Assembly (NCBI GenBank): GCA_016181175.1
Contig: JACOZV010000001.1
Coordinates: 259,519 to 323,518 of the forward strand
DNA length: 64,000 bases
Origin: Candidatus Yanofskybacteria bacterium
GTDB lineage: Bacteria > Patescibacteriota > Minisyncoccia > 2-02-FULL-40-12 > IGHO2-01-FULL-4-A
Reading direction: 5' to 3'
Notes under the pieces: generated by a model
Told to the model about the DNA's origin: nothing
The model's database searches: none
Seen by the model: the letters and a program-made list of their open reading frames with translations, nothing else
Made by a program: the position numbers and the translations under genes
Shown: positions 9,125-64,000 of the stretch, one piece after another
Position numbering within the stretch: position 1 is the first letter of the stretch
How the letters are laid out: the number at the start of each line of letters is the position of its first letter

Positions 9125-9160
9125 ACAAAGACCCAGATCGGGTCTTTTAATTTAGCAAGG

Positions 9161-9475: not shown

Positions 9476-9548
9476 TTTGTATTCCATTTTGATTTACTGG
9501 TTATAAATATCAAGGTTCTTTTAAATAAAATAAAAAAGGAGACAAATT

Positions 9549-10472: not shown

Positions 10473-10473
10473 G

Positions 10474-10498
10474 ACCGTCTTAACGGTCTTTATTTTTA
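10474..10498 (+). terminator. rho-independent terminator
   Basis: gaccgtcttaacggtc hairpin + T-run. Confidence 0.6.
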
Positions 10499-10592
10499 GC
10501 CGTGCGATTGATTTTCAGAGAATATTGTGTTATTCAATATGCAGAAAACGAGAACTTTAAAAACGTTATCATCTACCACAAGAAGGGGGATT

Positions 10593-10637
10593 ATGCTATT
10601 TATTAGAATGAAACACAAACAGCGATGGAAAAAATGA
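10593..10637 (+). CDS. 14-codon upstream leader ORF (MLFIRMKHKQRWKK) with strong SD, stop overlapping GT2 start (ATGA)
   Basis: aagaagggggatt-ATG; TGA at 10635-10637 overlaps ATG 10634. Confidence 0.3.
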   Translation: MLFIRMKHKQRWKK

Positions 10638-11368: not shown

Positions 11369-11431
11369 ATTCAATCGGATTATATCCGATTTTTTATTGT
11401 GAAATAATTTTGCATGTGCTAAGTTGAACTT

Positions 11432-12322
11432 ATGAATTGTATTATTTGCGGCGGAACTTCCCCGCGTTTTTTTAGGGAAAAAGATGGCTGGCAGTTAGTC
11501 GAATGTCCCAATGACGGGCTTATTTACGTTGATCCGCAGCCAACCGTGGAACAATTAACGGAATTTTATAATTCGGGAAAGTACTTTCATTCTGATGATC
11601 ATGGGGTGGGGTATAAAGATTATATCCGAGAAAAATTTTTTATAAACCTCGGGCATAAGCCAATACTTCGCAAGATTTCAAAATATTTTTCAAAGCTGAA
11701 TAAAAAAGAAGGAGCTCCACGCAAATTATTGGATGTCGGTGCCGCATATGGTTTTTTCGTTGAGTTGGCTTCAAAGTACGGGTTTGAAGCTATGGGAAAC
11801 GACATAACGCGGGAAGCGGTGGATTATGCAAAGAGCCGCAATGTAAACGTGGTTTTGGGCAAAACCAAAGAGCTTAATTTTCCGGACGGTTCTTTTGATG
11901 TTGTGACAGTTTTGGGGGTTATTGAGCATTGGTATGATCCCAAGGAAGAGTTATCGGAAATACGAAGAATTCTCAAAGTGGGGGGTCTACTAGTTGTTTT
12001 AACATTGGATACCGGAAACTTTTTAGGGAGAGGTGCGGTTAAAGTGCCGGAACACGTATTCTATTTTTCAAAAAGAAACCTAATCAGGTTTTTATCAGAT
12101 TGCGGTTTTAAAACCATTAAAACTTCAATCAACTGTACCTTTTTCAGTGTTGAAGAATTCTTCTTCCATTTATTTGGGCGTTTTTTCAAAAACGATAGTT
12201 TTGGTTGGTTGGAAAAACTCTTAGTCGGTTTGGCTCAAAAAACTCGTTTAGACAAAGTTCCTTTGCCGGTAATAGACGGCCAGATTCTTTTTATATGCCG
12301 AAAAGAAGGTAGTGCAAAATAA
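11432..12322 (+). CDS. class I SAM-dependent methyltransferase with N-terminal Zn-ribbon
   Basis: CIICGG...C...C ribbon; motif I LLDVGAAYGFF. Confidence 0.7.
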   Translation: MNCIICGGTSPRFFREKDGWQLVECPNDGLIYVDPQPTVEQLTEFYNSGKYFHSDDHGVGYKDYIREKFFINLGHKPILRKISKYFSKLNKKEGAPRKLLDVGAAYGFFVELASKYGFEAMGNDITREAVDYAKSRNVNVVLGKTKELNFPDGSFDVVTVLGVIEHWYDPKEELSEIRRILKVGGLLVVLTLDTGNFLGRGAVKVPEHVFYFSKRNLIRFLSDCGFKTIKTSINCTFFSVEEFFFHLFGRFFKNDSFGWLEKLLVGLAQKTRLDKVPLPVIDGQILFICRKEGSAK

Positions 12323-12401
12323 TCCTCTTTGATTTGACCTTATTTTAGTAATGGTTTATCTTGTTTGGGTGAAAGTTCTTTTATAAAGAAGAGGATAATT
12401 T

Positions 12402-12764
12402 ATGTCGGTTGAAATAAAAAACTTAGACGGAGAAGTTGTTTTTGTTTTTCCCGGTGATTCGTTGGTTGAAGCCAATTTGAGCAATAACAAAAACTTGGGT
12501 CGGGCCGATTTTCGCGGCCAAGACATGAGAAATGTTAACCTTGGTGGCGCTCATTGCCGCGGAGCTGACTTTTCCGGTGCGGATATGTCCGGCCAGAAAA
12601 CCTGCCTAGTTTATGCGCAGTGCCAAGATGCCAAGTTTGTCGGTACCAATCTTGAAGGAGCAGACATGGAAAGAATAAACATATGCGGGGCTGACCTGAC
12701 TGGCGCCAGAAAAAATGGCGCCAGAACATCATATTGGCACTGGGATGAAGATACGAAATTTTAG
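12402..12764 (+). CDS. pentapeptide-repeat protein
   Basis: tandem A(D/N)(L/F)xG repeats. Confidence 0.65.
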   Translation: MSVEIKNLDGEVVFVFPGDSLVEANLSNNKNLGRADFRGQDMRNVNLGGAHCRGADFSGADMSGQKTCLVYAQCQDAKFVGTNLEGADMERINICGADLTGARKNGARTSYWHWDEDTKF

Positions 12765-12769
12765 GGAGG

Positions 12770-13345
12770 GTGAAGAGAATGATAAAAATTCTGCACCGCC
12801 ATACAAGAGAATTGCTTTTTGTTTATCCTCGTGACACGTTTATCGGCCAAGACCTGCGGGGTTTCAATCTGGAGTTTGCAGACTTAAGCGGACAAGATTT
12901 AACAGAAGCAATTATGGAAGGCATGAATCTTGATGAAACCGAATTTTCTTATGCGACCTTGATTGGAGCCAAGATGGCTCGCTGTAGCTTAAGGGAAGCA
13001 ATTTTTGATAGTACCGACCTAACAGAAGCGAAACTGGATAATTGTAAATTTTCAATGACGGCCTTTGTACGAGCTGTTCTTACTCGAGCTGATTTTTCTG
13101 GTTCAGATTTTGAGGGGGTAACAAATTTTACGTACGCGATTGCTATTGGTACGAAGTTTAGGAATATTAAAAAAATTGGTTCACCAATTTTTGAAAATAT
13201 AGACTGTGGTGGCGCCGATTTTACGGGTACTGATTTAACGGTAATTTCGGAAGGCGATATTTTGGACGCAAACTTTGAGGGTGCCGTACTGGACCCGGCA
13301 TCAAAAGAATATTTGGAAAAAATTTTACGGAAGGAGATAAAATGA
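12770..13345 (+). CDS. pentapeptide-repeat protein
   Basis: ADLSGQDLTEA-type repeats. Confidence 0.65.
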   Translation: MKRMIKILHRHTRELLFVYPRDTFIGQDLRGFNLEFADLSGQDLTEAIMEGMNLDETEFSYATLIGAKMARCSLREAIFDSTDLTEAKLDNCKFSMTAFVRAVLTRADFSGSDFEGVTNFTYAIAIGTKFRNIKKIGSPIFENIDCGGADFTGTDLTVISEGDILDANFEGAVLDPASKEYLEKILRKEIK

Positions 13346-13539
13346 CCGATTCACCGTCCCCGCTTTGCGAAAACCATAAAGATACGCCCAAGCTAGAAGA
13401 TTCGGTAAAAATAAAATGCCGTATGTGTTCAACGGGTGATCCCGATTCACTTCGTGATTCATTTTATGAGGATGCCCAGCTTTGTCAGGAATGTCATGAC
13501 AACACGCAGTTCTGTATTATCTGCCAAGAACCCATCTAA
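13342..13539 (+). CDS. small Cys-rich zinc-ribbon protein
   Basis: CxxC...CxxC...CxxC; ATGA overlap with upstream gene. Confidence 0.45.
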   Translation: MTDSPSPLCENHKDTPKLEDSVKIKCRMCSTGDPDSLRDSFYEDAQLCQECHDNTQFCIICQEPI

Positions 13540-13540
13540 A

Positions 13541-13618
13541 TAGGACTTACGCGCATAGTCCTATGTAGGTCCAAATTAAAAACCCTAGCTTAATCTAATT
13601 AGCTAGGGTGTTTTTGTG
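13541..13618. terminator. pair of hairpins (palindrome ataggacttacgcgcatagtcctat; ccctagc..gctaggg + T-run) between convergent genes
   Basis: perfect palindromes followed by T-run. Confidence 0.55.
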
Positions 13619-13619
13619 T

Positions 13620-15290
13620 TTAAACAACGTCTTTAGGCTTTTCTTTGGAGTCAATTTGATCCTTTTGATGTTTGGCGGCTTCTTTCATGCCGGCCCGGAT
13701 ATTATCTAAAGGACTCGCGGGAAAAAGGCGCGGGAAAAAGGTTTTGGCGGCATAGCCCACATTTCTTAAGAACGAACCGTCGCCAATAGATTTTTTTATT
13801 TTCCAGAAAGCGTATCCGGGATTGTGAAGCGGTGAGTAAAATTCGCGATAAAACTTATTATACCAAGCCCGTAAAACTTCGGGTGTTAACTCTGGGTTGG
13901 GATGGCGGAACATGCCTTCTGCCCGATGAATATTATACAGGTCCCAACGTTCACTTAGAATTAATCCGGCTCGTTTCCAATCTTTGAATGCTCGAGTATC
14001 GGGAAAGGGAGTAAATATTGTCGCCTTGGCGAAATCTGGCCGCAACTTTTTGGCAAAATCAATAGTTTTTTGCATTGACCTTGGAGTGTCCTTAGGCGCT
14101 CCGATCATGAAAAAACCGATGGTCTCGACATTAAATTCTTTTAGCAATTTCATACATTCAATGGATTTATCTAGACTTAATGATTTTTGAATAGAATCCA
14201 GCGCGTCTTGGTCGCCTGATTCAAAGCCGGCGCCAAGAGAGTAAAGTCCGGTGCGGGTAGCTAGATCTAAGAATTCTCTGTCTATTCGGTCGGCCCGGAC
14301 TCCATTACCTAGATTTATCGCAAAATGGAGGCCGTGCTCTAACATTTTTTGATGAATGATTTTACCTCTTTTCACGTTGGTTAAATACTGATCGTCGGTA
14401 ATTCTTAATTCTTTGATATTTCTGAATTTGAAATACTTCATCAGTTCAATAACCTTATCCGGACTGAATACCCGATACGCATCTTCGGCTGAACAAAAAT
14501 TGCAATGAAATGGGCAACCGCGGCTGGTCTCAAAACCAATCCAGGGGTGTTCGTGAGCAAGAAGTCTTGGCATTTTGTAAAGATAGTAGGGATACAAGTC
14601 CAAATCCAATGGTGGCAGGTCATCCATTGTCAGAAATTTCCTGGGCGGGGTTTCTAGAACCTCCAATTTAACACTTTGTTCGGGCGGGTACATTGCGTCC
14701 AGAGCAACATAATAAGCAAGCTCGCCAGTCGAGAGGCGACGAATTATTTCATCAGTTGTTGTTTTGATGCTCCGATCATCTTCGCCAGTTCGATAAAATA
14801 CACCCCTAACATCCTTAATTGGCATACCAGAGCAGATATCAGCTAAAGTAGCCTCGCCTTCACCCTTAACGACAACATCGCACAGCGTCTCGCTAAGAGC
14901 TTCACTGGCCAAATTAGATGCGTGAACTCCGCCATGAATCAAAACTAATTCCGGACCCAAAACTTCTTTGGCGATAATGCCGGCTAATTTTGTACTAAAA
15001 AATGATGGCGTTACTACCATTAAGCCCAAATATTTAGGACGTTCCTCAAGCAGAAATCTCTTATAAGTGTGCCAAGCTAATTCTAGCTCAATTATGCCCA
15101 TATCTATCACGCAAGTCTTAAAACCCTTAAGATTAAGTTTTAGATAAGCCGATAACCATTGATAGGCCTGAATTGGAAACACCTGGGTCGCTGCATTAAT
15201 ACGGGTTCCAGTATAAGCGGTAAATATCTCTGGCATAACCGCAAAAGCGATTTTACGTTCATCCAGAACCGGATAGTTCTTTTTATTCAT
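13620..15290 (-). CDS. B12-binding-domain radical SAM protein (class B)
   Basis: SRGCPFHCNFC cluster; 556 aa. Confidence 0.75.
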   Translation of the reverse strand: MNKKNYPVLDERKIAFAVMPEIFTAYTGTRINAATQVFPIQAYQWLSAYLKLNLKGFKTCVIDMGIIELELAWHTYKRFLLEERPKYLGLMVVTPSFFSTKLAGIIAKEVLGPELVLIHGGVHASNLASEALSETLCDVVVKGEGEATLADICSGMPIKDVRGVFYRTGEDDRSIKTTTDEIIRRLSTGELAYYVALDAMYPPEQSVKLEVLETPPRKFLTMDDLPPLDLDLYPYYLYKMPRLLAHEHPWIGFETSRGCPFHCNFCSAEDAYRVFSPDKVIELMKYFKFRNIKELRITDDQYLTNVKRGKIIHQKMLEHGLHFAINLGNGVRADRIDREFLDLATRTGLYSLGAGFESGDQDALDSIQKSLSLDKSIECMKLLKEFNVETIGFFMIGAPKDTPRSMQKTIDFAKKLRPDFAKATIFTPFPDTRAFKDWKRAGLILSERWDLYNIHRAEGMFRHPNPELTPEVLRAWYNKFYREFYSPLHNPGYAFWKIKKSIGDGSFLRNVGYAAKTFFPRLFPASPLDNIRAGMKEAAKHQKDQIDSKEKPKDVV

Positions 15291-15422
15291 CAGTTCTTCT
15301 CCCTGAAGATTTGTTCGTTTTTTAAAGTTCGTATGAATAATTTTAACCTAAATACGGTGGTTGTCAATCTGTTGTGTAGGTAACATTTTCTATGTTAAGT
15401 TTTTATCAATGTAATTTTTATT

Positions 15423-17927
15423 ATGAATAATAAACTTAAAATATTTTTTGTGAGAAAAAACATTACACGTTTTTTTATTTTTTTAACGCCCGTAATAATT
15501 ACACTGGTTTTAATCGGCCCTACTCTTTGGGGCGGCAAGGTGTTTTTGGATTCCGCGCATTCTACGGTTCAATATTCGGCCCTGTTTTCCCTAAAGAGTT
15601 CTCTTAATTCCGGTGTATGGTTTCCGGTTTGGATTTCCCAATGGACAAGCGGATTTTCCCTCTGGCTACTTCCGGCGAATTTCGGGCTATTAAACCCGCT
15701 CCATATTATTCTGACTAAATTTTTAGATTTTGCTTTGGCGTCCCATATTCTTACCCTTTTTTATTTTATAGCCGGATTTTATGCGGCATATTTTTTGGGC
15801 AGGGCGTTGAGTTTATCCAGGGCTGCCTCCCTTATTGTCGCTCTAGCTTATGCTTTTAACAGTTTTAATGTTTGGTGGGGGCTTCTCCTTTCCTTTTCGT
15901 TTCTCTATTTTCTTTTGCCTTTTTTGTTTTTGACGTTGCTTAAGGCTTATCGGGGTGAGCGCAAGTTTATATATTGGTCGGCCCTTTTTATTTTTTTGGC
16001 TTGGCCGTTCGCTCTGCCCCAGATATTTTTATACTCGCTTATTGCGACATTTGCTTTTGCTTTGTATTTAGACTTTGCCAAACGTACGGAAGGTTTAGTT
16101 CAGAAACGCTGGCTGGCCATTAAAAGTTTTTTTTACTTTATCATCCCCGGCACTTTTTTGGCTCTCATTTGGTTGCTTCCGGTTTATGATTTTATTCAGC
16201 TTTCTTCCAGAGCCGGAGGTCTTGCTTTAGAGGCGGCAGGAGAAGGACGGCTTCTACCTTGGGATCTCATTTTTTCATATATCTATCCGTCTTTTTCAAT
16301 GCCCAAACTTATCCGCGAACATTTTTTATATATCGGTATTTTACCTTTTGCTTTAGCCATTTTTTCTTTGGTAAATTTTAGAAAAGACCGGCTGGTTAGA
16401 TTTTTTTTCATCGGTTATATTTTTATTATCTCTGCTTTATTTCCCGGTTCGCCTGTTTGGAGATTATTTAACATTACTCCGGTGCTTAATCTTTTCCGAG
16501 TGCCCCTGCAGTTACTTTTCGTGGGAAATTTTTTCTTGGCGATACTTGCTGGATTCGGTTTAGACGGATTGTCGGAAAACAAAACAATCTCGTATCTAAG
16601 GTTTTTCAAAAATTATGTCCGGGGATTGAAAATAATGGTTATATTTGGACTTGCGACGGCAATGGTTATAGCATTGATTATGAAGTTTTACAGGTCTAAC
16701 CTGCAAAATTTCGGTTATAATTATTTTGTTGAAAACTTGTTGCAATATACAAAATACCGTCCCTTGGAGCACTACTATGCCTTAATCAACGGATATTTTG
16801 ATAAGTTTTCTTGGCACGTATCTTTTCTAAATCCATATTTTTTGACCGCACTGTTTACGTTGAGTGCGGTTTTCGCCCTATTTTATTTTTACAGTCGGGG
16901 CAAACTTACATTTAACAACTTTAAAATAATCGCCGTTATTATTACTGTTCTTGATTTACTTTTCGTTTGGCGTGGCCACTACAGATTTATGCCCAGGGAT
17001 TGGTTAGACCCGGCTCCGGCGGCGGTATTTCTGAATTCAAGGGATAAAGAACCATTTAGGATTTATGTCATTTCCGAAGGGTATTTAGAGCTGGAAAAAA
17101 TGGGCTATGATAAATACGACCTCTCTAATTACAAAAAAGATATGCTTTTTAAACGGAGCCGGATGCTTGGTTTTGGATTAAACGGCGTATCTGGCATACA
17201 AGGTGAAATAACGATGCTTGATACGCGCCGTTATGCCAAAATTATAGATCTTATTACAGATTCAGACGACGGAAGGAGAATAGAACTTTCAACCGCTGAC
17301 AGAATTAAAGCATGGCAATCTTTGCAAAACAGAAATTTGCTTTCAATGATGAATGTAAAATACATTATTTCATCCTTTGACTTTAAGATGCCATGGAAAA
17401 AGATATTTGAAACCAAACCGGTTGAGGACGAGAAAATTATGACTTATGTTTATGAAAATACCGAAGTTTTGCCTAGGGTCTATTTTGCTAATAATGCAAG
17501 TTTTGCAGAACCAGACGAGTCCAGCACCAGTTTAGCCAAGGCCAAACTGGTGCTGGACGAGGCCAAAGCTTTTGACGCGTTACTGGCTATTAAAAACTTT
17601 AAGAACACAACGCTTGTTGAATGTGCGAGCGGGGATTGCGCTTATTCGGGCCAGCCGAATTTCAAAGATAGTCTGGAAATCATTGAAAAAAAAGAAGGCT
17701 ATTTAAAAGTTAAAACGCAAACCAAAAATCCAAGATATTTAGTTTATTCGGAGTCTAATTTGCCGTATTGGGAGGCGAGGATTGATGGGAAAATGTCCCC
17801 GATTCTTATGGCAAATTACGCGTATCAGGCGGTTTTGGTTCCACCGGGGGAGCATTTAGTGGAATTTCAGTATCCCGGCCCAATTACGCAGTTTAAGTAC
17901 TCACTCAAAAAACTGCTTGATTTCTAG
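15423..17927 (+). CDS. large polytopic membrane protein, YfhO-like (glycan/teichoic-acid glycosylation family)
   Basis: 834 aa, >12 predicted TM helices N-terminal, large C-terminal extracytoplasmic domain. Confidence 0.5.
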   Translation: MNNKLKIFFVRKNITRFFIFLTPVIITLVLIGPTLWGGKVFLDSAHSTVQYSALFSLKSSLNSGVWFPVWISQWTSGFSLWLLPANFGLLNPLHIILTKFLDFALASHILTLFYFIAGFYAAYFLGRALSLSRAASLIVALAYAFNSFNVWWGLLLSFSFLYFLLPFLFLTLLKAYRGERKFIYWSALFIFLAWPFALPQIFLYSLIATFAFALYLDFAKRTEGLVQKRWLAIKSFFYFIIPGTFLALIWLLPVYDFIQLSSRAGGLALEAAGEGRLLPWDLIFSYIYPSFSMPKLIREHFLYIGILPFALAIFSLVNFRKDRLVRFFFIGYIFIISALFPGSPVWRLFNITPVLNLFRVPLQLLFVGNFFLAILAGFGLDGLSENKTISYLRFFKNYVRGLKIMVIFGLATAMVIALIMKFYRSNLQNFGYNYFVENLLQYTKYRPLEHYYALINGYFDKFSWHVSFLNPYFLTALFTLSAVFALFYFYSRGKLTFNNFKIIAVIITVLDLLFVWRGHYRFMPRDWLDPAPAAVFLNSRDKEPFRIYVISEGYLELEKMGYDKYDLSNYKKDMLFKRSRMLGFGLNGVSGIQGEITMLDTRRYAKIIDLITDSDDGRRIELSTADRIKAWQSLQNRNLLSMMNVKYIISSFDFKMPWKKIFETKPVEDEKIMTYVYENTEVLPRVYFANNASFAEPDESSTSLAKAKLVLDEAKAFDALLAIKNFKNTTLVECASGDCAYSGQPNFKDSLEIIEKKEGYLKVKTQTKNPRYLVYSESNLPYWEARIDGKMSPILMANYAYQAVLVPPGEHLVEFQYPGPITQFKYSLKKLLDF

Positions 17928-47779: not shown

Positions 47780-49057
47780 TTGTTCTACGACGTTTTTAGT
47801 CCACTAAAAACCGCTTTTTCTCTTATCTTGCTCTATTGGTGGATTTTCACCCCGTTTTTATTTTTTTTCGGCGCACTTGACGGCTGGCTTTTTTATAAAA
47901 GAAAAAAGCACCTGCTCTCCATCAGGTGGGTTTTACTTGAGGTTAAGCCTCCACCTGACGTCCAAAAAAGTCCCAAAATAGCTGAAAATATATTTTCTGG
48001 CCTTCACGCTGTTTATTCGGGACCAAAAAGCTGGAAGGACAAATTTTTTAAAGGCGAAGTTCAGCCCTGGTTTTCGTTTGAAATCGTTGGCAATGGCGGT
48101 GAAATTAACTTTTATGTCAGGACACCAGAAGACCTGCGCAACTTAGTCGAAGCTCAAATTTTCGCGCAGTATCCAGACGCGGAAATTAAAATTGCTGATG
48201 ATTACATAAGCCAACTTCCCGAGCATTTGCCCAACAATGACTATGATATGTTCGGCACCGAACTCGTATTTTCAAAACCAAACGCCTATCCAGTCAAAAC
48301 GTATCCGTTTTTTGAAGAGGAGTCCGGCAAGGACGAATTCAGGCGGACGGATCCACTGGCACCGCTTGCAGAAATAATGAGTGCGTTGGAATCAGGCGAG
48401 CACATCTGGGTGCAGCTTTTAATAAGGGCTACTGGCGATGCGTGGGTTAAAGAAGCAAAGATTGAGATAGACAAACTAGTCGGCAAAGAGCCAAAAATTG
48501 AACGCGATGCGCTTGGCAAAGCTGTTGACTTTGTGGACCAGCTTTTGCCTGGCGGAACACCACCGCAGGAAGAAAAGAAAAAAGAAGATTTTTCACCGCA
48601 AAAACTTACGCCGGGTCAGAAATTTACTCTTGAACAGGTTGAAAATAAAATTTCAAAACTGGGCTTCAAATCCGGTTATAGATTTTTTTACATTGCGCGC
48701 AAAGACCGTTTTCATGGGTCACATATTTCAGCGGTTATGGGCATGTTCAAACAGCTTTATTTCAATAACCTTAACAGTTTCAAACCCAATAAAAGGGTTA
48801 TTACCAAGGACAAAGGATGGTTCCCATGGCTTTTCCCTTCGGAAAAAGGATTTTTTTATCGTGAACGTGAATATAGGCGCAAGGAGTATCTTTATCAGAA
48901 ATACCGCGAGAGGGCTTTTGTCGACCAGTTTATAATTTTAAACACTGAAGAACTAGCCACATTATTCCATTTGCCTGGCATTGGCGTGAAGGCGCCGGCA
49001 TTTCCAAGGGTTGAAGCGAAGAAGGGGCAACCGCCTGCCGGTTTACCAACAGGGTAG
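47780..49057 (+). CDS. hypothetical membrane-anchored protein
   Basis: N-terminal TM helices; 425 aa. Confidence 0.45.
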   Translation: MFYDVFSPLKTAFSLILLYWWIFTPFLFFFGALDGWLFYKRKKHLLSIRWVLLEVKPPPDVQKSPKIAENIFSGLHAVYSGPKSWKDKFFKGEVQPWFSFEIVGNGGEINFYVRTPEDLRNLVEAQIFAQYPDAEIKIADDYISQLPEHLPNNDYDMFGTELVFSKPNAYPVKTYPFFEEESGKDEFRRTDPLAPLAEIMSALESGEHIWVQLLIRATGDAWVKEAKIEIDKLVGKEPKIERDALGKAVDFVDQLLPGGTPPQEEKKKEDFSPQKLTPGQKFTLEQVENKISKLGFKSGYRFFYIARKDRFHGSHISAVMGMFKQLYFNNLNSFKPNKRVITKDKGWFPWLFPSEKGFFYREREYRRKEYLYQKYRERAFVDQFIILNTEELATLFHLPGIGVKAPAFPRVEAKKGQPPAGLPTG

Positions 49058-49139: not shown

Positions 49140-50828
49140 ATGAACGTAGTGAATGACAATCCAGTCGTATTATTTGGTGAAACTAACTTTCGCAATAAGA
49201 AAGTGACTTTTGGTGTTAAGATGGATGACCGCCGCCGCCATATGTATGTAATCGGTAAAACCGGTATGGGCAAATCAGAACTGCTCAAAAATATTGCCAT
49301 ACAGGATATTCAGGATGGCAGGGGGCTTGCTTTTGTTGATCCGCACGGGGATCCTGTTGAAGACCTGTTTGATTACATTCCAGAAGACAGAATAAAAGAT
49401 GTTATTTATATAAATCCTGCCGATTTGGAATATCCGATTGCTTTCAATGTCATGGAACAAGTTGATCCAGACAAGCGCCACCTGGTTGCTGACGGTGTGA
49501 TGGGCGTATTCAAAAAAATATGGGTTGACGTATGGTCGCCGCGCATGGAATACATCCTCAATAACACCATCTTGGCTTTGTTGGAAACTCCGGATGCGAC
49601 ACTGCTTGGCATTAATAGAATGCTTGCCGAGAAGGAATATCGGGCAAAAGTTGTGAATCAGCTAACTGATCCGGTTGTAAAAGCGTTTTGGACTGAAGAA
49701 TTTGCCAAATACGCCGACAGATTTGCTTCGGAGGCAACAGCGGCGATACAAAACAAAGTTGGTCAGTTCGTATCCTCATCTTTAATCCGCAACATTATTG
49801 GCCAATCGAAATCCACGCTTGATATGCGAAAAATTATGGACGACGGTAAGATTCTGCTGGTCAATATTTCAAAGGGAAGAATCGGCGAAGATGCCTCGCG
49901 ATTGCTTGGTGCGTTGATTATCACCAAAATTCAGCTTGCGGCAATGTCTCGTGTTGACATGCCAGAGCGGGAGCGCAAGGATTTTATACTTATGGTAGAC
50001 GAATTCCAGAATTTTGCCACTGCTTCATTCGCCAATATTTTATCGGAGGCCCGCAAATATCATTTAAGTTTGGTTATTGCACACCAGTATGTTGCACAAA
50101 TGGACGAAGGTGTCAGAGATGCGGTTTTTGGCAATGTGGGAACAATTGTTTCTTTTAGAGTGGGCGCAGAAGATGCAGAATTACTGGAAAAAGAATTAGC
50201 GCCGGAATTCATGGCAACCGATATAGTTAATCTAGGCAAAAGGCAGATATATTTGAAGCTTATGATTGACGGTGTGGCGTCGCGCGCTTTTTCAGCAATG
50301 ACGATGGATACAATTAAACGCTTACCCATCGGTTATCGCCAAAGAATTATCGACTATTCAAGAGAACATTATTCTGCTCGCCGTGAAGATGTGGAGAAAA
50401 AAATTGCTGACTGGCATGCCCCGGTAACTGCTGATATTAGCAGATTCGACAAATCCACCGCGGGCAGATTTTATGATGAACGTCCGCAACGCGAAATGCG
50501 TTCGCCACGCCCAAATTATGGCGAGTCAAACCGATTCGATACTCTTCCAACACGATTTGAACCCAGACCCCAAGTTTTTCAGCATCGTCCCGCACCCAGC
50601 GAGGTTAGGGCCGTGCCTGGACCCATGCGATCTAATCCCATTGCTTCATCTAAACCACCAATTAAACCAATTTCTTTTTCAGAAGCCATAAAAAGCGGTC
50701 CTGTTGATTTTAAGGGGCGCAAACTTGAGCCAAAAACAGTTGTGCCGCGACCAAAAGTTGAAGTTGATGTCGGTGGATTGCGTAAGATTCTGGAAGAGAG
50801 CATGAACAAAGAAGAAAGCCCTGATTAG
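49140..50828 (+). CDS. FtsK/HerA/TraD(VirD4)-superfamily P-loop ATPase with Pro-rich disordered C-terminus
   Basis: GKTGMGKS Walker A, VDPHGD, ILMVDEFQNF Walker B. Confidence 0.6.
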   Translation: MNVVNDNPVVLFGETNFRNKKVTFGVKMDDRRRHMYVIGKTGMGKSELLKNIAIQDIQDGRGLAFVDPHGDPVEDLFDYIPEDRIKDVIYINPADLEYPIAFNVMEQVDPDKRHLVADGVMGVFKKIWVDVWSPRMEYILNNTILALLETPDATLLGINRMLAEKEYRAKVVNQLTDPVVKAFWTEEFAKYADRFASEATAAIQNKVGQFVSSSLIRNIIGQSKSTLDMRKIMDDGKILLVNISKGRIGEDASRLLGALIITKIQLAAMSRVDMPERERKDFILMVDEFQNFATASFANILSEARKYHLSLVIAHQYVAQMDEGVRDAVFGNVGTIVSFRVGAEDAELLEKELAPEFMATDIVNLGKRQIYLKLMIDGVASRAFSAMTMDTIKRLPIGYRQRIIDYSREHYSARREDVEKKIADWHAPVTADISRFDKSTAGRFYDERPQREMRSPRPNYGESNRFDTLPTRFEPRPQVFQHRPAPSEVRAVPGPMRSNPIASSKPPIKPISFSEAIKSGPVDFKGRKLEPKTVVPRPKVEVDVGGLRKILEESMNKEESPD

Positions 50829-52488: not shown

Positions 52489-52561
52489 TCCGTCCACCAG
52501 GAATCGAACCTGGAACCTTCTCCTTAAAAGGGAGCTGCTCTACCAATTGAGCTATGGACGG
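52489..52561 (-). tRNA. tRNA-Lys (anticodon UUU)
   Basis: manual fold: acceptor CCGTCCA/TGGACGG, U8, D-loop AATTGGTA, anticodon loop CUUUUAA, T-loop TTCGATT. Confidence 0.75.
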
Positions 52562-57879: not shown

Positions 57880-59703
57880 ATGCCGGAACAGACACAGCCA
57901 CACCCGCTGCGCAGATTTATTATTTCCCTTAAGTTATACAGGGCACACATAGGATTGGGTAGTAACGAAAAGCTTATTAAGTTTGTTGATGAGCTTGTTC
58001 AAAGTGCTGAAAGAATTGAAACAAGGCAGGAGGCATCGGGCAGATCGGTTGGGTTAAGTTTTGAGTTTTTAGATTCAGTTTGCGGTTTCCTTTATAACCA
58101 ACTGCAAAAAGTAACAGCAGAAAACAATAAAAATAAGGCCGAAGCCAATAAATTATTGGAAAACCTGAAAAGTGCCGTTGAAGAAATAAAAGCTCTTCAA
58201 CGCCCTCCCCATTCGTTTGTTTTTTTTCAGAAGTTGGAAGAAAGAGGTGGCGAATTTTGGATTCGTACAAAAGATAGTACTGCTTTAGTATTTTCAGACG
58301 AATTGGTTGAGAAACTAAAAACCGCCAAAGCGGGCCAAAAGGTTCGGCTCAACGAATCCGGTGTAGCCATAGAATTGTTGGACGAGTTTGATAAAGACGG
58401 CGACATGGTGCAAGTTCTCGAGTTGTTGGGTGACAACCGATTGAGGGTTAGCCAAGAAAATAGGGGTGAAAGCATAGTTTTTATTTCTCCTTGTGTCCAA
58501 GAGGCGGATCTCAAAATAGGCGATAAGGTTTTACTTTCGCGATATAACAATTTAGTTACTGAAAAATTGTCCAGCTCCGAAGTAACCGAACTGGTTTTGC
58601 ATAAAGTTCCTAATTATACCTGGGATGATATTGGTGGTTTGGAAGAACAAATTGGTGCGTGGCGGGACGAAGTTGAAACCAACCTGGTTGATCCCGAATC
58701 AGCCAAAATTTACGGAATTGAGCAAACGAAAGGCGTTTTAATTACCGGTCCGCCCGGAGTCGGTAAGACTTTTCTCGTAAAAGTCGCGCTTAGCGAAACC
58801 GTAAAGTTTGTTAATCAGCAAACAGGCAGAAATATCGAGGGTTTTTATATCCTTGTAAACGGTCCAGCCGATATTTTGCGCGGTATTGTGGGGGATTCGC
58901 CGCGGCGAATCCAATATCTTTTCGCTGAAGCCAAAAGAAGGGCCAAGGAAGGCCATTTGGTTTTTATAATTTTGGATGAGTTCGAATCGTTATTTAGAAT
59001 ACGCGGCTCAATGGTTTTGGATGCCGGGGTTGGCAATGAAGATGTTAACCAGTTAAATGCTGAAATGGACGGCATTGAAGAATTGGATGGCGTACTGGTT
59101 GTGGCTTTGTCAAACAGGGCTGACCTAATTGACCCCGCCGTAATCAGACCCGGCAGGTTTGATCTCAAGATAGAAATTCCGAGATATGATAAAAAAACTG
59201 CCGCCAAAGTCTTTAGCAAATACATCAAACCGACACTCAAGTTCCATCACCAATATAAAAATCAAGACCCGGAACAAACTGCAAACCTGTTTGTTAACAA
59301 CATCGTTGATCTGTGTTATGACAGTCAGAGACCAGAAAATCAGCTGGCAGAAGTCATAGATGATGACTCCGGAGAATCTATCGTGTTCACTATTGGCAAC
59401 TTTATGTCCGGAGCTTTGATTAAAAACATAGTTTCAAGGGCAAAAAAAATTGCCCGTCGCCGGTTTGTGAATATTCCCAAAGAACAAGGCGAGAAAAGAG
59501 AATTAGAAGGGCTTATGTTGGACGACTTTTTCCAATCCATTGCAATAATTATCAGAAGCGAAATTAAATTACCGACCGGCGAGCAGGCACTAGAAGAATG
59601 GCTTCAAATTGAAGGTTATCAACACAGAAAAATAAGAAGAATGCGTTTTCTTTTGGACAAGAAAGATCCGTCCCGGACACCGGAACGCAGGGTCATGTCT
59701 TAA
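57880..59703 (+). CDS. proteasome-associated AAA ATPase (ARC/Mpa-like): coiled coil + OB-like region + AAA module
   Basis: GPPGVGKT Walker A, IILDEF Walker B, N-terminal coiled coil. Confidence 0.75.
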   Translation: MPEQTQPHPLRRFIISLKLYRAHIGLGSNEKLIKFVDELVQSAERIETRQEASGRSVGLSFEFLDSVCGFLYNQLQKVTAENNKNKAEANKLLENLKSAVEEIKALQRPPHSFVFFQKLEERGGEFWIRTKDSTALVFSDELVEKLKTAKAGQKVRLNESGVAIELLDEFDKDGDMVQVLELLGDNRLRVSQENRGESIVFISPCVQEADLKIGDKVLLSRYNNLVTEKLSSSEVTELVLHKVPNYTWDDIGGLEEQIGAWRDEVETNLVDPESAKIYGIEQTKGVLITGPPGVGKTFLVKVALSETVKFVNQQTGRNIEGFYILVNGPADILRGIVGDSPRRIQYLFAEAKRRAKEGHLVFIILDEFESLFRIRGSMVLDAGVGNEDVNQLNAEMDGIEELDGVLVVALSNRADLIDPAVIRPGRFDLKIEIPRYDKKTAAKVFSKYIKPTLKFHHQYKNQDPEQTANLFVNNIVDLCYDSQRPENQLAEVIDDDSGESIVFTIGNFMSGALIKNIVSRAKKIARRRFVNIPKEQGEKRELEGLMLDDFFQSIAIIIRSEIKLPTGEQALEEWLQIEGYQHRKIRRMRFLLDKKDPSRTPERRVMS

Positions 59704-59745
59704 TAAAATAAATAAAACCTCGCTTTACTTGGCGAGGTTTTTTAC
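59704..59745 (+). terminator. rho-independent terminator
   Basis: cctcgctttacttggcgagg + T-run. Confidence 0.6.
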
Positions 59746-59789
59746 TTAGAGTGGTTTAATTAGTGCAGATCTTTAAAAACGAGAGGAAT

Positions 59790-61445
59790 ATGAGTATTAA
59801 AAAAATTGTTGGAATAGAAACCGAGCTAAGACTTGACTGCGTCGATCCCGAAAATGACAAAAACCGAAAGAATTCTGGAGAATTGGAAGATTACGTGCTT
59901 CCGGGGAGTGTTGTTAAAAACGCGTTGAGCCAATCTGGTGGAGTTGTCGCCGTTGGTTCCGACACGCAACCCGCAAATTTGCAAAAAAATTTGGCGATTG
60001 TGGAAAATTTAAAAAAACTTTATCCGTCGTCACAAAAAGCCATACAAGAGCATTTGGAAAACAGAAGCGCAAGAAAGCGGGACCGTGGCATATCTGAAGA
60101 AGACTGCCTTGATACATATCAAAGATTTGGCCTTTCGGGCGGTTATACGTTTTCGGGTTTTAGGATTTATGTTGATGGAACTCATCCCGAAGTGTCAACG
60201 CCTGAATGTGCCACTCCTTTTGATTTGGTTTGCCGGCAAAAAGCCGGGGAAAGGATCATAGAAGAGGGCAGAAAGAAAACCGAAGAAGAAACCGGACGAC
60301 GGATTACGCTTTCGGCTGACAACAGCGACGGTTTGGGGGGAAGCTGGGGTTCTCACGAAAATTACCTTGTAAGCGATGAGCTTTTCGAGAGCCTTACTGA
60401 GGAAGGATGCCACCGTCACGATTTTCGCAGAACCCTTAATTCATATCAGGACTTTTGGGCCTCTTTTTTGGTGACACGTTTTGTATTTTGTGGTTCTGGC
60501 AAAATGGGCAGTGAAATTGACCAGGATTTGGAAAATAAATTTTTGATTTCGCAAAGAGCGGAGTTTATAAGCTGTAATTTTAGTCATAGAACCATGGAAC
60601 ACCGTCCCATTATAAATCTGCGCGATATTCCTTATGTTGGACCCGGATTTGGCCGGAGGCTGCACGTAATAATTGGTGACTCTAACATGTGTGAACCGGC
60701 AATTTACCTAAAAGTTGGCACGGCGATGATAATGCTGATGATGTTAGAAGATAATTTTATTTCTGAAGGTTCTTTCCCTATTTTTGAAAAACCGGTTAAA
60801 GCCTTGCAAACCGTCATGTCTGACGTTGATTGCTCCAATCTCCTAGATGTCTATGTTGGCGGTCAGTTTAGACACATGACCGCGATAGATATACAGAAGT
60901 TTTTTTGCGAATTGGCGGCAAAATGGCTTGAAGAACGTTTTAAAAATACCAGCGACAAAAAATCTGTTTCTTGGGTTTCGGAAGTTTTGTTCAGATTAGA
61001 TCAAGTTTTGACCAAGTTAAAAAATGATCCCATGGATCTTTTTGGCACAATTGACTGGGTGACCAAGTATGGCTTATGTTGTTCTGAACTTGAAAACCGA
61101 AATGCTGGTTGGACAGACGTAACCTCGCGTTCGAACCCGCTATTTCGCCGTTTGATCGGGATATGCGGCGCATATCATAGGTTAGACGAACTTGGCATAT
61201 ACAATAAATTAGAAGAAGCTCAAGAAGTTGAACGTATTGTTCAGGACGTTAATATTCACATTGCTTGTCTTGAGCCGCCGCAAGGCACCAGGGCTTTTGA
61301 GAGGGGCAAATTTCTTAGACATTTCAGGGACGACATATATCTTGTAAACTGGAACCTCATTTGCATTAAACGCAATCCTTACAAAATATTTCTAAACAGT
61401 CCATATTCATTTTCACCCGCTTTAGATGTGGAGCAAGAATCATGA
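59790..61445 (+). CDS. Pup-ligase/deamidase (PafA/Dop) family homologue 1, divergent N-terminal motif
   Basis: IVGIETELRL (instead of ETEYG), HPEVSTPECATPFD; SD gagagga. Confidence 0.65.
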   Translation: MSIKKIVGIETELRLDCVDPENDKNRKNSGELEDYVLPGSVVKNALSQSGGVVAVGSDTQPANLQKNLAIVENLKKLYPSSQKAIQEHLENRSARKRDRGISEEDCLDTYQRFGLSGGYTFSGFRIYVDGTHPEVSTPECATPFDLVCRQKAGERIIEEGRKKTEEETGRRITLSADNSDGLGGSWGSHENYLVSDELFESLTEEGCHRHDFRRTLNSYQDFWASFLVTRFVFCGSGKMGSEIDQDLENKFLISQRAEFISCNFSHRTMEHRPIINLRDIPYVGPGFGRRLHVIIGDSNMCEPAIYLKVGTAMIMLMMLEDNFISEGSFPIFEKPVKALQTVMSDVDCSNLLDVYVGGQFRHMTAIDIQKFFCELAAKWLEERFKNTSDKKSVSWVSEVLFRLDQVLTKLKNDPMDLFGTIDWVTKYGLCCSELENRNAGWTDVTSRSNPLFRRLIGICGAYHRLDELGIYNKLEEAQEVERIVQDVNIHIACLEPPQGTRAFERGKFLRHFRDDIYLVNWNLICIKRNPYKIFLNSPYSFSPALDVEQES

Positions 61446-62956
61446 AACCACTAACCAGTTTTGCATGTGAGCTGGACCGGATTTACGGTACGGAAACAGA
61501 ATACGGCCTCTATTGGAATACCAATAAAACCGACATTTTTGATTTGATGGATAGAAATTTTGCTCTATCCATTACGGATTATGAAAACCTTTTTAACTGT
61601 TTTGATAACTTAAATTTTAGTCGATTGTCCGAATTTTTTGTTCAAAATGGCGGTTTAATCAAGAAAGATAATCCAAATGATTACTGTGATTGTACGCCAG
61701 AATTTGCCACACCGGAATGTAAATCAGCCAGAGACGCGGTTTGTTGGGAAAAAGCCGGGGAAATAATAATGCGGGGCTTGTTCGATCTTTCAGGTGCGAA
61801 TAATTCTGTTTTTTTGATGGTCAAGCACGGCCGCGGCATGGCAAATTATTGGGGTTTGGACGGCACAGTAGTGGAAGTTTCTTGCGGCCATCATGAAAAT
61901 TATTCATATGACGAAGAACTTAAAGCAAGATTAAAAAAAGACAGCTGGGAATCCTGCGTATTTGTTTCGTTTCTTGCCTCGCGTATTCTATTTAGCGGAG
62001 CAGGTTGGTTGGATTCAAAAGGTTTGGGTTATAAGTTAAGTCAACGGGTTGATTTTTTAGAACAAATTAAAGGTTTGAGCACAACCGAAAAACGAGCCCT
62101 GATTTGTACTCGTGATGAACCATTGGGAACACTAAGTCCGCCACGATTGCATCTTATTGCCGGCGATCATTTAATGTCGGAAGTGGCCTTGTATTTAACC
62201 CTTGGATCCACGGGTTTGGTTGTGAGGATGTTGGAATCGGGATACGATTTTGCCGGTGTGCCAATTTTGGAAAATCCGATTTTGGCCTTGCGTATATTTA
62301 ATTCGGACCCGTTGTTAAAAAATAAGGCAATGCTTAGCGGACTCCAAAAAGAAATAACTGCTCTTGAAATTCAGGAATATTTTTGTGCCAGAGCCGGTGA
62401 GTTTATTAATTGTAACCCGTCGACTGAAGAAGAAAATGATATTGTAGCCTATTGGGCAAGCGTGCTGAAGCGTCTCAAAAAAGATATTTACTCTCTTTAT
62501 GGTGAACTCGACTGGGTTACCAAATTGTGTTTAATGGAATCTTATTTGGAAAAATACGGCATTTGTCCCGAGAGGATTAGGGAGACCAATGGTTTGCCGC
62601 TAGAAACTTTAAATTGTTGCATGAGCCTTGATCTGACATATCATTTTATCACGCCTGACGGCCTGTATAACAAACTTAAAGAAGCGGGTTTGATCAAAAG
62701 GCTTCTGTCTGACGAAGAAATAACTCATGCCGTGACCAATCCGCCGCAAGATACCAGAGCAAGAATTAGGGGAGAAATGATTCAACTTATGAAGTCTGGC
62801 AAAATAGAAGGCCGAGTTGGCAATTGGAATAGCTTTAGCTTAAGTGGTCTTCCGCCGCACCAGCGTTTGGTTAGATCCGTCATAGGCATGGAAGATCCTT
62901 TTGATTTTTATTGCAAAGTATGGCAAGATCAAAAAAGATCATTAGGCTTCTCTTAA
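61442..62956 (+). CDS. Pup-ligase/deamidase (PafA/Dop) family homologue 2
   Basis: YGTETEYGLYW and TPEFATPECKSARD match PafA/Dop N-terminal signatures; ATGA overlap with homologue 1. Confidence 0.7.
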   Translation: MKPLTSFACELDRIYGTETEYGLYWNTNKTDIFDLMDRNFALSITDYENLFNCFDNLNFSRLSEFFVQNGGLIKKDNPNDYCDCTPEFATPECKSARDAVCWEKAGEIIMRGLFDLSGANNSVFLMVKHGRGMANYWGLDGTVVEVSCGHHENYSYDEELKARLKKDSWESCVFVSFLASRILFSGAGWLDSKGLGYKLSQRVDFLEQIKGLSTTEKRALICTRDEPLGTLSPPRLHLIAGDHLMSEVALYLTLGSTGLVVRMLESGYDFAGVPILENPILALRIFNSDPLLKNKAMLSGLQKEITALEIQEYFCARAGEFINCNPSTEEENDIVAYWASVLKRLKKDIYSLYGELDWVTKLCLMESYLEKYGICPERIRETNGLPLETLNCCMSLDLTYHFITPDGLYNKLKEAGLIKRLLSDEEITHAVTNPPQDTRARIRGEMIQLMKSGKIEGRVGNWNSFSLSGLPPHQRLVRSVIGMEDPFDFYCKVWQDQKRSLGFS

Positions 62957-62967
62957 GAGGTGATGAA

Positions 62968-63150
62968 ATGTCGCAGGAAGAAAAAACCAAAAAAAGGCCT
63001 GGCGATAATCGCGAACCGCAAGAAGAATCAAGAAAAAAAGCAGAACGAGAGCGAAGATCAAAAAAGCATAAAGACATTCTTGAAGACCTTCAAGATGTAA
63101 TAGGTGAAACGGAAAAACAAAGGCAGAAGGGCCGCAAGGGCGGTCAGTAA
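62968..63150 (+). CDS. prokaryotic ubiquitin-like protein (Pup/UBact-like), 60 aa, C-terminal GGQ
   Basis: disordered K/R/E-rich N-terminus, ILEDLQDVIGETE helix, ...KGRKGGQ-stop; SD agaggtga. Confidence 0.65.
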   Translation: MSQEEKTKKRPGDNREPQEESRKKAERERRSKKHKDILEDLQDVIGETEKQRQKGRKGGQ

Positions 63151-63151
63151 A

Positions 63152-63177
63152 GCGGATTTAATCCGCTTTTTTTCTTG
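63152..63177 (+). terminator. rho-independent terminator
   Basis: agcggatttaatccgct + T-run. Confidence 0.6.
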
Positions 63178-63241
63178 ACTTCAGCATGGTATCTAGGATA
63201 AACTTTTAGCAACTTGCTGTTTGAAATTTATAGGGGATATT

Positions 63242-64000
63242 ATGGAATTTCTAACCGCCGAAGAGGTTTTTGATAAATCTAGTGCTGAAGCGTTTAAGGG
63301 GTTAAATGATACAAATGGCGTCAGTATTGCTGACATTGGAAAGTTTTTATTGCACGGCACGACTGATTTAGCCATTCTTTTTGAGAGCGGGATAGTGTTA
63401 GCTACAGACGGCCGAGCCGCCGGACAAGATATGCATATCGGAGATGAATTTTTTGACAAAACATGCATGCTTGATAGTCACTCCCTGATTGCAATTTCTG
63501 GCGTTCCCGGGCTGGGTTTTTCCATGGCGAAACTAATAAGAGCAAGATTCATGTTTTCAGCAATGGACCACGAAAACCTTCCGCTTCCTGCCGAGACCAA
63601 AGCCAATGTCGTTGCCGCAAGCATCAGGGATAATTTGGGTTTGGTGTTAACTCACAAACTGGTTGTTCAGCCAATTTTGGCAATTTTTGATTTAAGTGAA
63701 TCCAAACCGTGCGGTAAAATTTTTAGCATCTGGATTGACGGAACGGTGCAAAAAGGAAACCGCTACGTTACTTGCGGTTCTGGCGGTCAAGTCGCGGACG
63801 TTGTTCTGGACCTGGCCCTTAACGTTATAAAAAAGAAACCGGACCAACTTTCACTCCAGGATGCCCAACATCTAGCGGTCTTAGCGCTTGAGTATGCCCA
63901 CAAAAGAGATGCGGCCACCGGAGGAAAGATATTTATGCGCGTTATTACCAAACACGGCGTAGAGTCCGTTTCGGAAGAAGAGATAAGCGGGTTTAGCGAA
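63242..64000 (+). CDS. prcB: 20S proteasome beta subunit (partial, runs off window)
   Basis: propeptide then HGTTDLAILFESGIVLATDGRA (N-terminal Thr nucleophile context); ORF open at window end. Confidence 0.75.
   Translation, partial: MEFLTAEEVFDKSSAEAFKGLNDTNGVSIADIGKFLLHGTTDLAILFESGIVLATDGRAAGQDMHIGDEFFDKTCMLDSHSLIAISGVPGLGFSMAKLIRARFMFSAMDHENLPLPAETKANVVAASIRDNLGLVLTHKLVVQPILAIFDLSESKPCGKIFSIWIDGTVQKGNRYVTCGSGGQVADVVLDLALNVIKKKPDQLSLQDAQHLAVLALEYAHKRDAATGGKIFMRVITKHGVESVSEEEISGFSE

Follow-up and report, generated by a model that had tools for sequence, protein, structure and literature searches.

The DNA analysed here, referred to below as the window, is a stretch of 64,000 nucleotides from a contig of Candidatus Yanofskybacteria, a lineage of the Candidate Phyla Radiation (CPR)/Patescibacteria. 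Its 3´ end carries genes that very probably form, together with one gene lying just beyond the window, a complete chromosomal Pup-proteasome system of this bacterium, in a diverged form that is specific to its clade. As judged from their sequences, the genes would encode an AAA ATPase similar to Mpa/ARC, two paralogues of the PafA/Dop family, a small Pup-like modifier, and the beta and alpha subunits of a 20S proteasome (Table 1).

An initial annotation, made from the letters of the window, had claimed five same-strand genes for the ATPase, the two paralogues, the modifier, and the beta subunit, and had expected the alpha gene to follow outside the window. All five open reading frames (ORFs) were found on the forward strand at 57880-64000. 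The ATGA coupling claimed for the two PafA/Dop paralogues was seen as a 4-nt overlap between the ATG of paralogue 2 and the TGA of paralogue 1, and the 60-aa Pup-like protein ending in GGQ was found where it had been placed. The 3´ end of the beta gene and the whole alpha gene were supplied by L001, a public Logan contig of 14.6 kb that was obtained by an exact-protein look-up and is 100% identical to the window across 7,765 shared bases; the expected alpha gene is thus present, and it is followed in L001 by a terminator-like hairpin and a Mur-ligase gene. In the NCBI database, the operon products correspond to the proteins MBI2062912-MBI2062917, encoded on a 374,535-bp contig of a Candidatus Yanofskybacteria metagenome-assembled genome (MAG). 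The ATPase is named there as an AAA family ATPase and each paralogue as a "PafA2 family protein"; the modifier, beta, and alpha are listed as hypothetical. The NCBI start codons differ for the modifier (76 aa) and for alpha (224 aa). In the case of paralogue 1, the ORF opens with a GTG at 59763, and both the gene callers and NCBI start the gene at the ATG at 59790.

Table 1. Genes and putative transcription signals of the Pup-proteasome locus (window positions unless another contig is named).
Feature	Position	Strand	Length or description
Mpa/ARC-like AAA ATPase	57880..59703	+	607 aa
PafA/Dop-family paralogue 1	59790..61445	+	551 aa
PafA/Dop-family paralogue 2	61442..62956	+	504 aa
Pup-like modifier	62968..63150	+	60 aa; ends ...GRKGGQ
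Terminator-like hairpin and T-run	63149..63176	+	from terminator scan
Weak promoter-like element	63175..63204	+	TTGACT, 18 nt, TAAACT
20S beta subunit (PrcB-like)	63242..64000	+	262 aa in full; first 253 codons in window
20S alpha subunit	off-window, L001 7792-8478		228 aa; 4-nt overlap with the beta end

The same six-gene order recurs in independent assemblies from several samples, namely L004, L005, L008/L089, L009, and L088, and therefore the arrangement is not a product of chance. In all, seven distinct loci of the Paceibacteria type carry the operon. L004 is a 60-68% identical relative from another sample, in which the operon is flanked by the same upstream FemAB and downstream Mur ligase genes. 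L008/L089 belongs to Ca. Paceibacterota and L009 to Ca. Yanofskybacteria CG10, and the groundwater contig L088 stops after the modifier gene. Close relatives number only about 14 for paralogue 1 and about 10 for paralogue 2 in a set of 5.8 billion clustered proteins. A scan of the GTDB genomes with paralogue 2 as a single query gave no matches, whereas a scan with the clade alignment succeeded. The metagenome scan yielded only two further loci of the clade, and the other modifier-bearing loci that it returned were nearly all canonical Pup loci, with a GQYL ATPase and a canonical tail.

The ATPase has a coiled-coil region at its N-terminus, an OB domain, and a single AAA module. It is recognized by the Pfam models AAA (87.8 bits) and Prot_ATP_ID_OB_C (35.7 bits), and weakly by OB_N. 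Its best NCBIfam match is TIGR03689 (pup_AAA), with 321 bits, under the cut-off of 505, and with profile positions 9-510 of 512 covered. The best full-length matches in the PDB are likewise Mpa/ARC proteins, 7px9 over residues 78-598 and 5kwa with 216 bits.

In the proposed modifier (MSQEEKTKKRPGDNREPQEESRKKAERERRSKKHKDILEDLQDVIGETEKQRQKGRKGGQ), a short basic tail that ends in GGQ comes after an amphipathic helix of acidic character, and a Shine-Dalgarno sequence, GAGGTG, lies 5´ of its ORF. Its position and tail type are kept in seven loci of the clade, where ORFs of 54-64 aa occupy the same place in the operon and always have the C-terminus G-[GS]-[QE], in the form GGQ, SGQ, GGE, or SGE (KQRQKGRKGGQ, QQRQRGRRGGQ, EQSKQGRKSGQ, KARQKGRVGGE, QHAKRKKKSGE, and KQRRKGRKGGQ). 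Small ORFs ending in G[QE] were gathered from 120 loci and sorted into four tail types. The canonical Pup tail (...EENAEEFV..YVQKGG[QE]) occurs in Actinobacteria, Nitrospirae, Nitrospinota, KSB3, and Azambacteria; the UBact tail (...LLKRMRKVDP..RYRQR[TS]G[EQ]) in Opitutus and an Archangium MAG; a third type (...FL.QNRQ.GG[EQ]) in Myxococcota and "delta-proteobacteria" MAGs; and the acidic helix with a short basic tail in the clade of the window, i.e., the window itself, L004, L005, L008/L089, L009, and L088. The loci with the third type of tail are L076-L078 and L087. In L078 the modifier is a weak match to Pfam Pup (E = 0.047) with no UBact match, and L077 and L078 both have a second ligase-family gene of unusual length (820-840 aa).

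A relationship between the clade modifiers and Pup is indicated by a profile-profile comparison with hhalign, in which the clade profile aligned with that of canonical Pup over 28 helix columns (E = 2.4e-5, probability 75%), the aligned helix being the one with which Pup binds the coiled coil of Mpa. The top PDB match of the window modifier is also Pup (3m91_B), a weak match with E = 0.15. In a joint alignment, the clade modifiers differ from Pup by a two-residue deletion and a replaced second helix, and the small proteins can be arranged in a graded series that runs from the canonical Pup of L033 through the L006 protein (...EDYVRKRREKSGE) to the window type. When 1.84 billion representatives were searched exhaustively with HMMER, only 2 clusters matched at E < 0.001, the modifier itself and the L004 protein. 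The modifier is too short and too diverged for sequence searches, and gene context was therefore the productive route to its relatives. With its 60 aa, its GGQ end, its place between a ligase-like gene and prcB, and a helix that aligns with that of Pup, the predicted protein fits a functional definition of Pup.

Both paralogues match the PafA/Dop family, as the initial annotation had claimed, with PF03136 scores of 312 and 264 bits for paralogues 1 and 2, respectively, and both keep the GxExE, (H/T)PE...PEC, and HENY motifs. On the NCBIfam models, paralogue 1 scores 249 bits with TIGR03688 (Dop; cut-off 492), and paralogue 2 scores 219 bits with the same model and 194 bits with TIGR03686 (PafA; cut-off 551). 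As both paralogues score higher on Dop, these scores were rejected as a discriminator; TIGRFAM profiles have been reported not to discriminate between Dop and PafA (Hecht et al., PMC7947786). A comparison by Foldseek of AlphaFold2 (AF2) models with the solved Dop and PafA structures was also rejected, as it does not separate the enzymes. The model of paralogue 2 (pLDDT 87.7, pTM 0.92) has TM-scores of 0.77 to Dop and 0.74 to PafA, so that the fold does not tell one from the other; that of paralogue 1 (pLDDT 78.8) gave a Foldseek TMt of 0.82 to Dop 4b0r.

Three discriminators between Dop and PafA are described in the literature, and we measured these features on 155 members of the family. All Dop proteins and no PafA proteins contain the Dop-loop, in which 40-65 aa with a conserved WDYEV-type motif are inserted before strand beta-2 (PMC8599861, PMC9556782). 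The segment at this site is about 43 aa long in canonical PafA and 72-83 aa long in canonical Dop, where it carries W[DN][YF]..E.P..DARG; it has 114 aa in paralogue 1 and 53 aa in paralogue 2. The insertion in paralogue 1 has a motif of the clade, EHL...QRFG[FL]SGGY, and AF2 predicts helices in it with low to moderate confidence. After the catalytic Asp, PafA has D-VGS-HPE and Dop has D-HA-HPE, compared with D-GT-HPE in paralogue 1 and an Asp followed by 8 aa and TPE in paralogue 2. Before the EC pair, PafA has Y-ATPEC and Dop has F-STPEC, compared with V-STPEC in paralogue 1 and F-ATPEC in paralogue 2. The complete signature of paralogue 1, D-GT-HPEV-STPEC, thus combines the spacing of Dop with a Dop-type Ser, and 7 of 8 first genes from CPR loci are alike in this respect. 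That of paralogue 2, D-NPNDYCDC-TPEF-ATPEC, has the PafA-type Ala and an insertion after the catalytic Asp.

Core-only HMMs of Dop and PafA, built from actinobacterial sequences and scored as Dop minus PafA bits, point in the same direction. On held-out sequences from Nitrospirae, Nitrospinota, and KSB3, they gave +85 to +146 for Dop and -87 to -115 for PafA. All eight CPR first genes scored between +22 and +57 (paralogue 1, +45), and all ten CPR genes of the second type scored between -1 and -39 (paralogue 2, -15.5). Outside the clade, the nearest relatives of paralogue 1 are annotated as Dop or PafA2, and those of paralogue 2 have the length of PafA (451-459 aa at 94% coverage) and in some cases the name Pup--protein ligase. 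Among solved structures, paralogue 1 scores 216 bits with Dop 4b0r and 138 bits with PafA 4b0t. Because the insertion, the STPEC/ATPEC difference, the Asp spacing, the signs of the core HMM scores, and the nearest relatives all agree, we propose with moderate confidence that paralogue 1 is a Dop-like deamidase/depupylase and paralogue 2 a PafA-like ligase. The split into a ligase and a deamidase that the initial annotation had envisaged can therefore be given a direction, at a moderate level of support only.

The 20S beta subunit claimed initially is well in place, as the protein matches PF00227 with 66.9 bits, above the cut-off, and TIGR03690 with 85 bits, below the cut-off of 192. A 39-aa propeptide precedes Thr1, with the processing site HG|TTD, and this site is common to the clade homologues together with Asp17 and the conserved Lys (offset by one residue). 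As a single sequence, the alpha subunit reaches only 17.1 bits with PF00227, below the Pfam cut-off. However, a six-sequence profile of the clade alpha proteins matches PrcA structures over the full length (Rhodococcus 1q5q_A, E = 6e-15; M. tuberculosis, 1.7e-12), with the PrcA matches ranking ahead of every beta subunit; therefore, the 228-aa gene encodes a divergent 20S alpha subunit. The alpha protein also matches the ORF at the PrcA position in Actinoplanes.

A GC-rich hairpin (AAAGCGGATTTAATCCGCTTT) followed by a T-run begins at the stop codon of the modifier gene (L001 6914-6934, corresponding to window 63149-63169). It is found at the same site in all five clade loci examined (the window, L004, L005, L008, and L009), with stem sequences that differ among them. 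This conservation suggests a terminator or attenuator between the tagging unit and prcBA. The element that follows, 5´ of prcB, agrees with the promoter consensus at 9 of 12 positions, and a TTGAC element is also present after the hairpin in L005, L008, and L009. As a promoter, it is suggestive; counting against it, the region holds 20 promoter-like sites compared with 17 +/- 4 in shuffled sequences, i.e., no more than expected by chance.

Taken as a Pup-proteasome system, the locus would function as follows. The modifier is made with a C-terminal Gln, which is seen in its sequence; such a Gly-Gly-Gln end implies deamidation before ligation. The Dop-like paralogue 1 would deamidate this Gln to Glu, and could later strip the tag off substrates. 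The PafA-like paralogue 2 would phosphorylate the terminal Glu at its gamma-carboxylate, at the expense of ATP, and then ligate it to the epsilon-amine of a substrate Lys. The N-terminal coiled coils of the Mpa/ARC-like hexamer would then capture the central acidic helix of the tag, and the substrate would be unfolded and threaded into the 20S particle, to be degraded within a divergent alpha ring and a beta ring with Thr1. A clade-specific x-Met-Ser tail, which replaces GQYL, probably serves to dock the ATPase on the alpha ring. In addition, the hairpin with its T-run probably separates, or attenuates, transcription between the tagging unit (the AAA, dop-like, pafA-like, and pup-like genes) and the protease unit (prcB and prcA).

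The locus resembles the Pup-proteasome systems of Actinobacteria and Nitrospirae in having the same six protein families and the same core order of ATPase, Dop-like enzyme, modifier, beta, and alpha. The modifier ends in Gly-Gly-Gln, its central helix can be aligned with the one by which Pup binds Mpa, and the beta subunit has a propeptide and Thr1. At the level of superfamilies and architecture, all components agree with such a system. However, the ligase gene lies between the dop-like gene and the modifier gene rather than 3´ of prcA, and a hairpin parts the modifier gene from prcB. In contrast to Pup, the modifier has no ...EENAEEFV..YVQKGG and has instead a basic tail, ...EKQRQKGRKGGQ, that is two residues shorter. 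The ATPase ends in x-M-S and not in GQYL as in Mpa; the Dop-like enzyme has a 114-aa insertion, predicted to be helical, without the WDYE...DARG of Dop; the ligase-like enzyme differs from PafA by an insertion of at least 8 residues after the catalytic Asp and by TPE in place of HPE; and the alpha subunit is too diverged for the Pfam threshold. Similar to the UBact systems, the locus has a Pup-like modifier outside Actinobacteria, with a basic tail and a G-[QE] end, next to homologues of Mpa, Dop/PafA, and the 20S subunits, but the motif ...LLKRMRKVDP...RYRQR[TS]G[EQ] is absent from its modifier. The archaeal PAN-20S system also shares an AAA ATPase with a coiled coil and an OB domain and a two-gene alpha/beta 20S, and PAN models are the secondary NCBIfam matches of the window ATPase. 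Nevertheless, this protein fits bacterial Mpa/ARC better (321 vs 155 bits), and archaea tag with SAMPs of the ubiquitin fold and with E1-like enzymes, rather than with a disordered Pup-like peptide and ligases of the glutamine synthetase fold.

Several findings weigh against the assignment of the locus to a Pup-proteasome system with these roles. Every component misses its NCBIfam equivalog cut-off; this also justifies calling the system divergent and upholds the divergent tagging and degradation system put forward in the initial annotation. The window modifier has no match at E <= 10 to the Pup models TIGR03687 and PF05639. In the positive control, TIGR03687 found four canonical Pups (best E 3.7e-22) and none of the clade proteins. 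With NF033388 and PF20513, the models for UBact, no match was obtained for the modifiers of the window, L006, L009, and L057, while in the same runs the positive controls from Opitutus (L056) and the Archangium MAG (L079) scored 69-87 bits, so that the label UBact, which the initial annotation had also offered, does not describe this modifier. At the probability obtained with hhalign, homology between the modifier and Pup is only moderately supported in statistical terms. The ATPase ends in ...RRVMS and is without GQYL, the motif with which canonical Mpa docks to the 20S particle. The six distinct clade loci all have x-M-[S/A/Q] at this position (RVMS, GIMS, GPMA, DSMS, GKMQ, and RRVMS), with a conserved penultimate Met where the canonical ATPases, which end in GQYL or GHYL in 41 loci, have Tyr. 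We infer that the x-Met-Ser tail may be a variant docking motif, and the divergence of the alpha subunit would fit a co-evolution with it. As to the roles of the paralogues, the insertion of paralogue 1 lacks W[DN][YF]..E.P..DARG, the lean of paralogue 2 towards PafA is small, and paralogue 2, like paralogue 1, scores higher against solved Dop than against solved PafA. Furthermore, the alpha-loop of paralogue 2, F.LEQIKGLSTTEK, is nearer to the Dop pattern than to H.WEG.SSATTRS of PafA, and in neither AF2 model was a PafA-type helix present in the alpha-loop (residues 206-217 of paralogue 2 form a strand and then coil), although predicted models are weak evidence on a conformational switch.

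In a rival reading, the system is as described but its paralogues arose by a duplication in CPR/Gram-negative bacteria, independent of the split between Dop and PafA, and could have reversed, overlapping, or bifunctional roles. In that case, paralogue 2 could both deamidate and ligate, and paralogue 1 could be a regulator or a substrate-specific depupylase. A distance quartet test placed the two CPR paralogues together, apart from Dop and PafA, in 183 of 200 bootstraps; the higher scores of both paralogues against solved Dop and the AF2 models without a PafA-like helix point the same way; the alpha-loops of paralogue 2, DFLEQIKGLSTTEKR, and of Dop, DFFEVEVGLETTLKR, agree at the F, E, G, L, TT, and K positions; and engineered variants of Dop can ligate (Hecht et al., PMC7947786). 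However, the distances are near saturation (1.3-1.9 substitutions per site), and hence long-branch attraction may have affected the quartet result; the grouping could reflect either this or an independent duplication. A bootstrapped neighbour-joining best-split test was uninformative, since its best split isolates only the tight PafA clade. The reversed orthology, with paralogue 1 joined to PafA and paralogue 2 to Dop, was obtained in 0 of 200 bootstraps, and the STPEC/ATPEC difference, the Asp spacing, the insertion at the Dop-loop site, the HMM signs (18 of 18), and the reciprocal relatives all fit a Dop-like paralogue 1 and a PafA-like paralogue 2. An independent duplication therefore seems unlikely to us.

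Far less probable still is that the 60-aa ORF is spurious or unrelated to Pup, with the proteasome acting on untagged or otherwise marked substrates and the PafA/Dop homologues serving another task. It is true that the ORF matches no curated family, that it is of low complexity and rich in Lys, Arg, and Glu, and that the exhaustive search yielded just one other representative cluster. Yet every clade locus has an ORF of this size class with the same kind of end and a Pup-like acidic helix, the Shine-Dalgarno sequence is strong, profile-profile and PDB searches both indicate Pup, and the graded series connects the window type with the canonical Pup of L033. We give hardly any credence to an artefact of binning or assembly, or to a very recent import from Actinobacteria or Nitrospirae. 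Pupylation outside these two phyla is sporadic and has been attributed to horizontal transfer (PMC7947786), and the canonical Pup and GHYL ATPase of the Azambacteria locus L033 do look imported. In the window, however, the operon lies inside the long contig described above, whose flanking genes NCBI gives to Yanofskybacteria, and this supports the claim of a non-actinobacterial host. The GC content of the window is about 0.41 and uniform at about 0.41-0.42, operon included, in agreement with the approximately 40% stated in the initial annotation. The window also contains the chromosomal genes for UvrB, RuvA, FemAB, SecA, and SecD, of which FemAB and SecD (as SecDF) had been named among the surrounding genes. 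The FemAB and Mur ligase flanks are syntenic in L004, the nearest named genomes are from Paceibacterota and Yanofskybacteria, and actinobacterial or Nitrospirae homologues are at best just 35-41% identical. Contamination or misbinning was rejected on GC, synteny, and contig context.

A complete Pup-proteasome system of a diverged type thus remains our preferred reading. It is also conceivable, if rather doubtful, that loci of the Paceibacteria type represent a third separate Pup-like lineage beside Pup and UBact, with its own modifier, a Met docking motif, and an independently specialized pair of ligase and deamidase. If so, the division of labour between hydrolase and ligase would be a convergent outcome, and the Pup-proteasome would be older or more widely exchanged than is assumed in a model of actinobacterial origin followed by transfer.

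The locus bears on the true reach of Pup-proteasome systems. Bacterial proteasomes have been described as restricted to actinobacteria (PMC6466877). Pupylation is considered a conserved trait of Actinobacteria and Nitrospirae that occurs sporadically in NC10, Armatimonadetes, Verrucomicrobia, Nitrospinae, Firmicutes, Proteobacteria, and Planctomycetes; CPR is not mentioned in that account (PMC7947786). Our literature searches on pupylation or proteasomes in CPR, Patescibacteria, Parcubacteria, and Yanofskybacteria, whose reach did not extend to the UBact report, returned nothing relevant. That report, by Lehmann et al. in 2017 (BBRC), is said to have described loci of the UBact type in several candidate phyla, Yanofskybacteria and Parcubacteria among them. 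The genomes of CPR/Patescibacteria are very small, and an episymbiotic way of life is attributed to these bacteria. What the locus adds is not a new principle but a system that is complete, unusually far diverged, and present in a lineage with reduced genomes, and the retention of a six-gene proteolysis machine in such reduced cells suggests that targeted protein turnover is valuable to them. Since only the ATPase and the two "PafA2 family" genes receive a label from current annotation pipelines, such systems are under-counted. They also provide natural variants for structure-function studies of a pathway that is a drug target in M. tuberculosis, namely a Dop-like enzyme in which the canonical loop motif is missing, a ligase-like enzyme whose alpha-loop resembles that of Dop in sequence, and an ATPase that lacks GQYL.

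Remoter versions of the system were found in other CPR bacteria, in a "Patescibacteria group" MAG (L006), a Saccharibacteria MAG (L057), and an Azambacteria MAG (L033). In L006, the modifier gene is located after alpha. The gene order in L057 (7860-14268) is AAA, Dop-like, beta, alpha, a small ORF ending in ...YRNRDKKEGQ, and PafA-like, and its ATPase ends in EGVV. The L033 locus (7728-16620; Ca. Azambacteria RIFCSPLOWO2_01_FULL_44_84) combines a canonical Pup (...EENAEEFMKSYVQRGGQ) with an ATPase whose C-terminus is GHYL and with four PafA/Dop-family paralogues of 623, 553, 495, and 504 aa. No 20S genes were found among the ORFs of this locus, which reaches about 10 kb beyond the match, and it looks like pupylation without an adjacent proteasome and like a second, separate origin of such systems in CPR.

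Other arrangements came from metagenomes. In L116 (4896-7739) and L117 (5281-8284), AAA ATPases ending in DPMVG adjoin one short PafA/Dop-family gene (429-456 aa), and neither beta/alpha genes nor a small ORF ending in G[QE] was detected nearby; these loci may represent a further variant. A 1.2-kb contig, L121, contains at 38-858 three tandem small ORFs ending in GQ, 5´ of a PafA/Dop fragment. Two of them end in ...RQ.[GS]GQ and one in ...RIGQ, and they may be multiple modifier genes.

Elsewhere in the window, an 834-aa ORF at 15423-17927 has no Pfam match at E <= 1e-5. A 562-aa ORF (49140-50828) contains a TrwB/type IV secretion coupling-protein domain (PF10412, E = 1.9e-9), and it is adjoined by a 425-aa ORF (47780-49057) with no Pfam match. 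The sole Rfam match of the window is a tRNA gene on the reverse strand at 52489-52561 (70.9 bits).

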